Below are positions 33,159 through 34,443 of a stretch of 64,000 nucleotides of DNA, piece by piece (the stretch's first letter is position 1; each line of letters opens with the position of its first letter). A program made the position numbers and the translations under genes. Source of the stretch: Escherichia coli (GTDB lineage Bacteria; Pseudomonadota; Gammaproteobacteria; Enterobacterales; Enterobacteriaceae); the NCBI RefSeq assembly GCF_003334765.1, contig NZ_QOWT01000003.1. One strand, given 5' to 3'. A model generated the notes under the pieces. It did not search any database. It was not told the DNA's origin and was given only the letters and a program-made list of their open reading frames with translations.

Positions 33159-33653
33159 TTACCTTGCACAATGCATTATTGCTCTGTTACCAATGCTCAA
33201 AATAAAAGCATGCTTACCTTGCTTTAGTATATTATAGCTTACACTTTTTTCTGGAAAGACATAAAAATCAGGAATAAGTTGTGCAAGTCTATCATCATCA
33301 ACTTGATCCATAATCTCAAACTTATTAACTTTCTTTGATGTTAAATGGGCTGTGTCATAGTTTTCAATCCATGTGTATTCAATATTTCGCCGTATTGATT
33401 TACTTTCTCTGTTACCTTGTTGCCAGGTTCCACTCAACGCAACAGTTCCTGTTTTATTTTTTTTGTTATACATAAAGTCGATGGTAAGATTTGCTCGTCC
33501 CTGGTCATTAAAAATTACCCAATTTGCAGTGCATGTTTCGTTATATATCATTTTTTCTGCAGTGTAAGAATAGACAGTGAAGAGAATAAACCCACTGATA
33601 AAAACTAAAATAAATAATAAGTTTTTTTTATAATCAATCACGATTAACCTCAC
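33159..33653 (-). CDS. yqeJ: single-pass membrane protein YqeJ (possible ToxS-like partner of YqeI)
   Basis: 164-aa ORF, N-terminal TM segment (LLFILVFISGFILFTVYSY), overlaps the yqeI 3' end by 20 nt. Confidence 0.65.
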   Translation of the reverse strand: MRLIVIDYKKNLLFILVFISGFILFTVYSYTAEKMIYNETCTANWVIFNDQGRANLTIDFMYNKKNKTGTVALSGTWQQGNRESKSIRRNIEYTWIENYDTAHLTSKKVNKFEIMDQVDDDRLAQLIPDFYVFPEKSVSYNILKQGKHAFILSIGNRAIMHCAR

Positions 33654-34443
33654 GGTAAGACAGGGTTAAACAGTTTGCCACTTCATGTTGGTTATAGTTT
33701 TTATTGCATGCCATAACAATCATCCCCGGTGAGGATTTTGCAAGAGGGAAGTATAACCACGGATGTTTTTTACAGTTAATCCCCGAATCCAGTATCCGTG
33801 TTTTATATTTATCGAACTCTTTCAACCCATCAATTGTATCTTCTGTTACATTAAAATGGCAGCCATTAATTTCCGCAACAGTCTTGTAATCCTTGAAAAA
33901 TGGCTTCGGTTGATTATTATTCCATAGCCAATATGCAGAATATGCGCCTATGACAAATGCGCTCAACATAATTAGATGACTTTTTATATGTTTGAGGATT
34001 TTGTTATTGAAATTCTTTGCGCCACCAATGCTCTCTTTGTATCCCGCATTAACTTTTATGGCAGGTGGGGCATTGTGTGTATGTGCGTCTGTTGACGAGT
34101 TTATTACATGATTTTGTATGTTAATGTCATTATGGATCTTGAATCCTCTTCTCGGCACGGTTGCAATTAGCGAGTGGGTAGTATCACCAACAGCGCGAAA
34201 TCCGCGTCTGATAATGGATATGTTCTGATATAACGTGTTAGTAGGCACACGCATACCTTCTTCTTCCCAGACTCTGGTGAAAAAATCTTGTTGTGCAACC
34301 ACATCAGGAAAAGCTTCAAGTAGAAGTGATAAACATCGACTGGCTGGCGTTGTCAGAACGACGTTAAGATCGGCGTTATGTACCGATATTAATTTTCGGT
34401 GCTCAGGCCAGAACTCGATATTATCGTTAATAATCCAGTACAT
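33634..34443 (-). CDS. yqeI: ToxR-like membrane-bound transcriptional regulator YqeI
   Basis: 269 aa; N-terminal OmpR/ToxR-type winged helix (ATVPRRGFKI), central TM segment (IMLSAFVIGAYSAYWLW), C-terminal periplasmic region. Confidence 0.85.
   Translation of the reverse strand: MYWIINDNIEFWPEHRKLISVHNADLNVVLTTPASRCLSLLLEAFPDVVAQQDFFTRVWEEEGMRVPTNTLYQNISIIRRGFRAVGDTTHSLIATVPRRGFKIHNDINIQNHVINSSTDAHTHNAPPAIKVNAGYKESIGGAKNFNNKILKHIKSHLIMLSAFVIGAYSAYWLWNNNQPKPFFKDYKTVAEINGCHFNVTEDTIDGLKEFDKYKTRILDSGINCKKHPWLYFPLAKSSPGMIVMACNKNYNQHEVANCLTLSYREVNRD

Follow-up and report, generated by a model that had tools for sequence, protein, structure and literature searches.

ToxR-type regulators that work with a lipocalin-like partner allow enteric bacteria to sense host signals such as bile, and to switch on virulence and colonisation genes. 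The adjacent genes yqeI and yqeJ, carried in the ETT2 island of Escherichia coli, raise the question of whether they encode a regulator and partner of this type, whether they are an inactive remnant of the island in which they lie, or whether YqeJ acts independently of YqeI. The first-pass annotation of this DNA had proposed, on the grounds of topology and gene arrangement, that they form a ToxR/ToxS-type pair. The fold predicted for YqeJ, the ToxR-like winged helix of YqeI, synteny in 11 of 12 lineages and a model of the two periplasmic domains as one fused chain all agree with that proposal. We consider it highly probable (roughly 85%) that the two genes together encode a co-component transmembrane transcription regulator of the same kind as VtrA/VtrC and ToxR/ToxS. 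The regulator combines a winged helix with a single transmembrane (TM) segment and a small periplasmic alpha/beta domain, and its partner, encoded immediately downstream on the same strand by an overlapping gene, consists of a short cytoplasmic tail, a TM segment and an eight-stranded periplasmic barrel.

The pairing of YqeI with YqeJ was already known, as it was published in 2022 by Kinch et al. (PNAS, PMC9214523), who listed the pair, in both K-12 and O157 Sakai, as a candidate co-component system resembling VtrA/VtrC; YqeI with YqeJ is also listed among co-component systems in PMC10269533 and PMC13042144. What is added here to the work of Kinch et al. is an independent confirmation, the likely start codon of yqeJ, the signature of purifying selection on both genes and the conservation of the pair in a sample of lineages. 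Most E. coli strains carry one such cassette, and it is an accessible model for fast-evolving sensors.

Location and organisation of the yqeI-yqeJ locus

The window (the whole stretch of 64,000 nucleotides that was analysed) includes the ETT2 island and is in reverse complement orientation relative to MG1655, and positions 26584-36500 share 99.94% identity with K-12. Both open reading frames were located on the minus strand at the positions given for them by the first-pass annotation (Table 1). Directly upstream of the cassette is yqeH (34777-35469), which encodes a small LuxR/GerE-type regulator whose best NCBIfam match is EcpR-like, at 73 bits and under the cut-off. A LuxR/GerE-type regulator is likewise found upstream of the cassette in a distant locus, L017 (positions 461-970), and it is possible that yqeH, yqeI and yqeJ form a three-gene unit.

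In several strains an IS1A element is present just downstream of yqeJ, between this gene and the small yqeL ORF. One example is locus L020 (1652-2349; strain EC5 and others), where the sequence is otherwise 100% identical, and the insertion leaves yqeJ and yqeL intact. Matches to Rfam within the window were limited to the two OmrA/OmrB small RNAs (46560-46641 and 46756-46843) and to one tRNA (17014-17084), which is a tRNA-Gly by annotation and borders the ETT2 island.

Table 1. Coordinates of the features of the yqeI-yqeJ locus in the window, with the basis on which each was assigned.
Feature	Position	Strand	Basis
yqeI CDS, 269 aa, membrane-tethered ToxR-like transcription regulator	33634..34443	-	ORF list; RefSeq annotation, K-12 and other strains
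YqeI residues 28-102, cytoplasmic OmpR/PhoB-type winged-helix DNA-binding domain	34138..34362	-	Pfam; PDB sequence match
YqeI residues 156-174, single moderately hydrophobic TM segment	33922..33978	-	hydropathy; alignment to 11 homologues
YqeI residues 175-269, periplasmic domain, 95 residues	33637..33921	-	alignment; fused AlphaFold model
yqeJ longest ORF, first GTG, 164 aa	33159..33653	-	ORF list
yqeJ CDS, favoured GTG start, 160 aa	33159..33641	-	ORF list; RefSeq start; homologue junction geometry
GAGG Shine-Dalgarno-like motif within the end of yqeI, 6 nt upstream of the second yqeJ GTG (33641)	33648..33651	-	sequence reading
8-nt overlap, yqeI stop/yqeJ start	33634..33641	-	RefSeq start; homologue junctions
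A8 homopolymer, yqeJ codons 5-7 (A9 in O157:H7)	33622..33629	-	allele comparison; published strain marker (PMC11186120)
YqeJ residues 8-26 (160-aa numbering), N-terminal TM anchor	33564..33620	-	KD 2.26; model helix 4-30
YqeJ residues 27-160, periplasmic eight-stranded lipocalin-like barrel	33162..33563	-	

Conservation of the pair in a partly decayed island

The GC content of yqeI and yqeJ is 37%, within the range of the surrounding ETT2 island (32-37%) and below that of its flanks (approximately 50%). At positions 18379-26584, type III secretion genes of ETT2 take up approximately 8.2 kb of the window. In MG1655 an IS2 element alone occupies this place, and identity to MG1655 is 99.9-100% on both sides; because of the extra secretion genes, the ETT2 remnant is larger here than in K-12. 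Two overlapping consecutive ORFs within this region (21635-22366, 243 aa, and 22363-22755, 130 aa) correspond to a split SctU-like gene, and a strain with 99.3% identity has a frameshifted EscU/SctU export-switch gene at the same position. Homologues of SctQ, the needle protein, SctI, SctJ and OrgA are also annotated as broken in that strain, by frameshifts or internal stops. In the window strain, the type III secretion genes close to the cassette thus show at least partial decay, and, judging from these reading frames, the secretion apparatus looks non-functional while yqeIJ is intact.

The AT-rich setting, the broken secretion genes, and the scans for promoters and terminators, which gave nothing above chance level, would all suit a second explanation; namely that yqeI-yqeJ is itself an inactive remnant of a decaying island and is silent or non-functional in the window strain. 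We regard this as improbable. The pair was found at a query coverage of at least 80% in approximately 3600 of 5426 complete E. coli genomes, with both ORFs intact. In comparisons with two E. coli alleles that have diverged by approximately 4%, dN/dS was 0.06-0.09 (yqeJ) and 0.25-0.30 (yqeI). The winged helix of YqeI is unchanged between these alleles, and the replacements fall mostly in its linker and membrane segment. This is not the pattern of a pseudogene, and it indicates that purifying selection acts on yqeI and yqeJ within E. coli. Furthermore, deletion of yqeI in an avian pathogenic strain resulted in fewer flagella and in reduced motility, serum survival, adhesion and colonisation (PMC7552227).

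The yqeI/yqeJ junction and the start codon of yqeJ

Two in-frame GTG codons could serve as the start of yqeJ. The first (33653) is not preceded by a Shine-Dalgarno motif. The second (33641) is favoured because it follows such a motif (Table 1), is the start used by RefSeq for three other strains as well as K-12 (483 nt, 160 aa), and produces the overlap that is seen in homologues. An 8-nt overlap is also present at five diverged homologous loci (L002, L005, L008, L009 and L015), and GGAG or GAGG precedes the start of the partner gene in L002, L008, L015, L016 and L017. The first-pass annotation had described an overlap of 20 nt between yqeJ and the 3' end of yqeI; the overlap itself is real, but the figure holds only for the longest yqeJ ORF and is probably an overestimate, as the favoured start gives 8 nt. 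This arrangement of stop and start suggests that translation of yqeI and yqeJ is coupled. Kinch et al. counted YqeI/YqeJ among the non-overlapping exceptions (PMC9214523), whereas in the current annotation and sequence the two genes do overlap.

The start of yqeJ differs in O157:H7. An extra A in the homopolymer near the start of the gene (A9 in place of A8) shifts both GTG codons out of the reading frame of the protein body; there is also a GTG-to-GTGG change, and the annotated start is a TTG which gives a 4-nt overlap. The A8/A9 difference has been published as a marker that separates K-12 from O157 (PMC11186120). The tract and the alternative starts might set the amount of the YqeJ partner that is made per YqeI regulator. 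A second A8 run is present inside yqeJ, at 33457-33464.

YqeI is a membrane-tethered regulator with a ToxR-like winged helix

YqeI had been described in the first pass as having an N-terminal OmpR/ToxR-type winged helix, one TM segment and a periplasmic domain, and each of these was recovered from Pfam, from sequences of solved structures and from hydropathy. Residues 28-102 match Pfam Trans_reg_C (E = 4e-9). The best matches among the sequences of solved structures were to the DNA-binding domain of V. cholerae ToxR (8b4b, E = 1.6e-7), with far weaker matches to PhoB-family and CadC structures; a CadC match in NCBIfam was also weak (E = 3e-4) and far under the cut-off.

Hydropathy analysis gave a single membrane segment for each protein, as expected from the proposed topology, with a weak signal in YqeI and a strong one in YqeJ (2.26). 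The YqeI segment (residues ~156-174) follows a Lys-rich stretch and has a Kyte-Doolittle maximum of 1.35, which is under the usual cut-off of 1.6; the segments aligned with it in 11 homologous regulators are clearly hydrophobic (1.75-2.9). The domain beyond it was predicted in the fused model described below to have the order strand-strand-helix-three strands, so that it ends in a strand, with pLDDT mostly between 80 and 96. When the tails of the 12 regulators were aligned, the only invariant columns were one Tyr and the four Cys that in YqeI are Cys195, Cys224, Cys246 and Cys258, and identity was otherwise 13-41%. It is likely that these four Cys form two disulfides. A profile search with the C-terminal domains of the regulators returned only E. 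coli and Shigella fragments.

YqeJ is predicted to be an anchored barrel resembling ToxS and VtrC

The description of YqeJ as one N-terminal TM helix followed by a periplasmic body, also made in the first pass, is borne out by hydropathy and by the AlphaFold model. The protein begins with a short tail containing two Lys, continues with a strongly hydrophobic helix and ends with approximately 134 further residues. The model, which was built from the family alignment, has a mean pLDDT of 94.9; residues 4-30 form a helix, after which come eight strands and a further short helix, with Cys37 on the first strand of the barrel and Cys158 on the last. Kinch et al. have called YqeJ a lipocalin in which a disulfide joins the first and last barrel strands (PMC9214523). 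Two other readings of the N-terminus were considered and set aside. The first Cys of YqeJ comes after the TM helix and is part of the sequence NETC; as this does not constitute a lipobox, YqeJ was rejected as a lipoprotein. A cleaved signal peptide is unlikely in the E. coli protein, as on reading the sequence the hydrophobic stretch is approximately 19 residues long and is not followed by a -3/-1 site of small residues.

An exhaustive search with YqeJ returned 98 cluster representatives (E <= 0.001), of which the 64 with a length of 140-185 aa were taken as the family set; the alignment comprises YqeJ and 63 of these. Nearly all 64 relatives share the short basic tail, the hydrophobic segment, a Cys approximately 35 residues in and a Cys three residues before the C-terminus. 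Cys37, Gly65 and Gly71 are invariant in the alignment, and Arg85, Phe126, Pro154 and Cys158 are found in at least 90% of the 64 sequences. Precomputed annotations assign YqeJ and its relatives to PF27292 (YqeJ_C), and distant members of the family, and only these, have weak or faint matches to FidL_like (PF15941). The E. coli protein falls below the Pfam threshold for FidL_like, and local scans of it against Pfam-A and NCBIfam gave no match, including none to PF27292. YqeJ belongs to the YqeJ_C/FidL-like family.

Similarity to ToxS was found at the level of structure. Neither YqeJ nor the 64 family members had a Pfam-A match to the ToxS family, and neither ToxS nor VtrC was found when PDB sequences were searched with YqeJ (phmmer) and with the 64-sequence profile. 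In a Foldseek search with the YqeJ model, the only three matches below E = 0.001 were all ToxS chains, including that of the V. cholerae ToxR-ToxS heterodimer (8alo), and VtrC chains ranked next, with sequence identities in the ToxS and VtrC structural alignments of 7-13%. On the strength of the model, YqeJ is ToxS/VtrC-like by fold and gene arrangement, and is not a ToxS orthologue or a member of the ToxS sequence family.

Gene pairing in other lineages

Gene context was determined on the contigs encoding 12 diverged members of the YqeJ family, which were found by exact-protein look-up. In 11 of the 12 lineages a regulator gene is located immediately upstream of the yqeJ homologue and on the same strand. 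These 11 regulators are 253-347 aa in length and carry Trans_reg_C; each contains a single hydrophobic segment, and its tail of approximately 90 residues includes four Cys. Of the 12 pairs obtained when the window is counted, six overlap by 8 nt, two by 11 nt and two by 4 nt, and the remaining two are separated by 1 nt and by 5 nt. The surrounding genes vary from locus to locus, and because the neighbours differ the regulator and its partner can be regarded as a conserved unit.

The exception is P0085 (loci L013/L014), a YqeJ_C/FidL-like protein with no ToxR-like gene or ORF remnant in the 650 nt upstream of its gene; a response regulator with a GerE domain is encoded approximately 750 nt downstream. 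From this orphan it is possible that some members of the family have a role independent of the partner.

Pairing of the periplasmic domains

The structure prediction of the YqeI periplasmic domain with YqeJ that the first pass had proposed as a check was run as a single fused chain, in which residues 175-269 of YqeI were joined by a 30-residue Gly-Ser linker to residues 27-160 of YqeJ. The alignment contained the same fusion for 11 homologous pairs, together with 51 unpaired partner sequences, so that the YqeI half was represented by 12 sequences. The resulting AlphaFold model (12 paired sequences) had a pTM of 0.80 and a mean pLDDT of 86, with values below 50 only in the disordered linker. 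Because this pTM was reached with 229 of 259 residues folded, the two domains appear to be placed together with confidence. When the fused model was used as the query of a fold search, the barrel once more matched ToxS and VtrC, and no ToxR or VtrA periplasmic chains were among the matches listed. When co-expressed, the periplasmic domains of YqeI and YqeJ give a dimeric complex (Kinch et al., PNAS 2022, PMC9214523).

A third explanation is that YqeJ works on its own as a lipocalin-type carrier that binds lipids in the periplasm or membrane, and that its gene only shares a transcript with yqeI, YqeJ having no effect on YqeI. This explanation could draw on the orphan P0085, on the lower-scoring resemblance of the barrel to retinol-binding protein, Japanin and bacterial lipocalin-like proteins, and on a few family members (e.g. 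P0128 and P0134) with N-termini resembling cleavable signal peptides, but is very unlikely, given that the closest structures are the regulator partners ToxS and VtrC and not carriers, that the tight pairing with a ToxR-like regulator persists among differing neighbours in 11 of 12 lineages, that overall confidence in the fused model is high and that the complex is formed upon co-expression (PMC9214523).

Relationship to known systems

Four known systems were compared with YqeI and YqeJ. YqeI/YqeJ has been described as an orthologue of Salmonella MarT/FidL and a paralogue of GrvA/FidL (PMC9214523). In MarT/FidL (SPI-3) and in GrvA/FidL of E. coli O157 the cassette is the same; a ToxR-like regulator is followed by a small barrel partner with one TM segment, and, as in YqeJ, the first and last strands of the partner bear a pair of Cys. 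The location is different, as yqeI-yqeJ is in the ETT2 island and beside the LuxR-type regulator yqeH. MarT is an activator of the misL autotransporter, and GrvA has its effect on adherence that depends on LEE, whereas the targets of YqeI are known only from the transcriptome of the deletion mutant of an avian strain.

VtrC, the partner in the VtrA/VtrC bile-salt receptor of V. parahaemolyticus, binds bile salts; it shares 7-9% identity, and no profile-level similarity, with YqeJ. The periplasmic domain of VtrA is without conserved disulfides (PMC9214523), in contrast to the four invariant Cys of YqeI and the conserved Cys pair of YqeJ. In comparison with ToxR/ToxS of V. cholerae and V. parahaemolyticus, the published YqeI model does not have the C-terminal helix of VtrA and ToxR (PMC9214523), with which our fused model agrees, and the toxR and toxS genes do not overlap (PMC9214523), whereas yqeI and yqeJ do. 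CadC, a one-component membrane regulator, resembles YqeI in its ToxR-like winged helix and single TM segment; it has a large periplasmic sensor and no YqeJ-like partner, whereas YqeI has approximately 95 periplasmic residues and a conserved partner downstream.

Proposed mode of action

Based on the structures of ToxRS and VtrAC, and on the published co-expression complex, the periplasmic domains of YqeI and YqeJ would form an obligate heterodimer. By analogy with these systems, the sheet of YqeI may pack against or extend the barrel of YqeJ, and the barrel would probably hold a hydrophobic ligand, such as a bile salt or another lipid. Binding of the ligand could then alter the stability or oligomerisation of the complex, and in turn the DNA binding and transcription activation of the membrane-tethered YqeI. 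Folding of both domains may depend on oxidation in the periplasm, given the conserved Cys residues (two likely disulfides in YqeI, and Cys37-Cys158 in YqeJ).

A more tentative suggestion, which we hold to be possible rather than probable, is that yqeIJ has outlived its island, and serves commensal and pathogenic E. coli as a working periplasmic sensor of lipids or bile that controls genes outside ETT2, such as those for flagella and adhesins.

Homologous cassettes are often found beside adhesin genes (L005, L008, L015, L016, L017 and L018). The neighbours are autotransporters in L016 and L018, an invasin/intimin-type gene in L017, chaperone-usher fimbrial genes in L008 and L015, and a two-partner-secretion haemagglutinin-type gene in L005. 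This neighbourhood, which parallels that of MarT with MisL and of PsaEF with the Psa fimbriae, hints that adhesins may be the usual targets of such cassettes.
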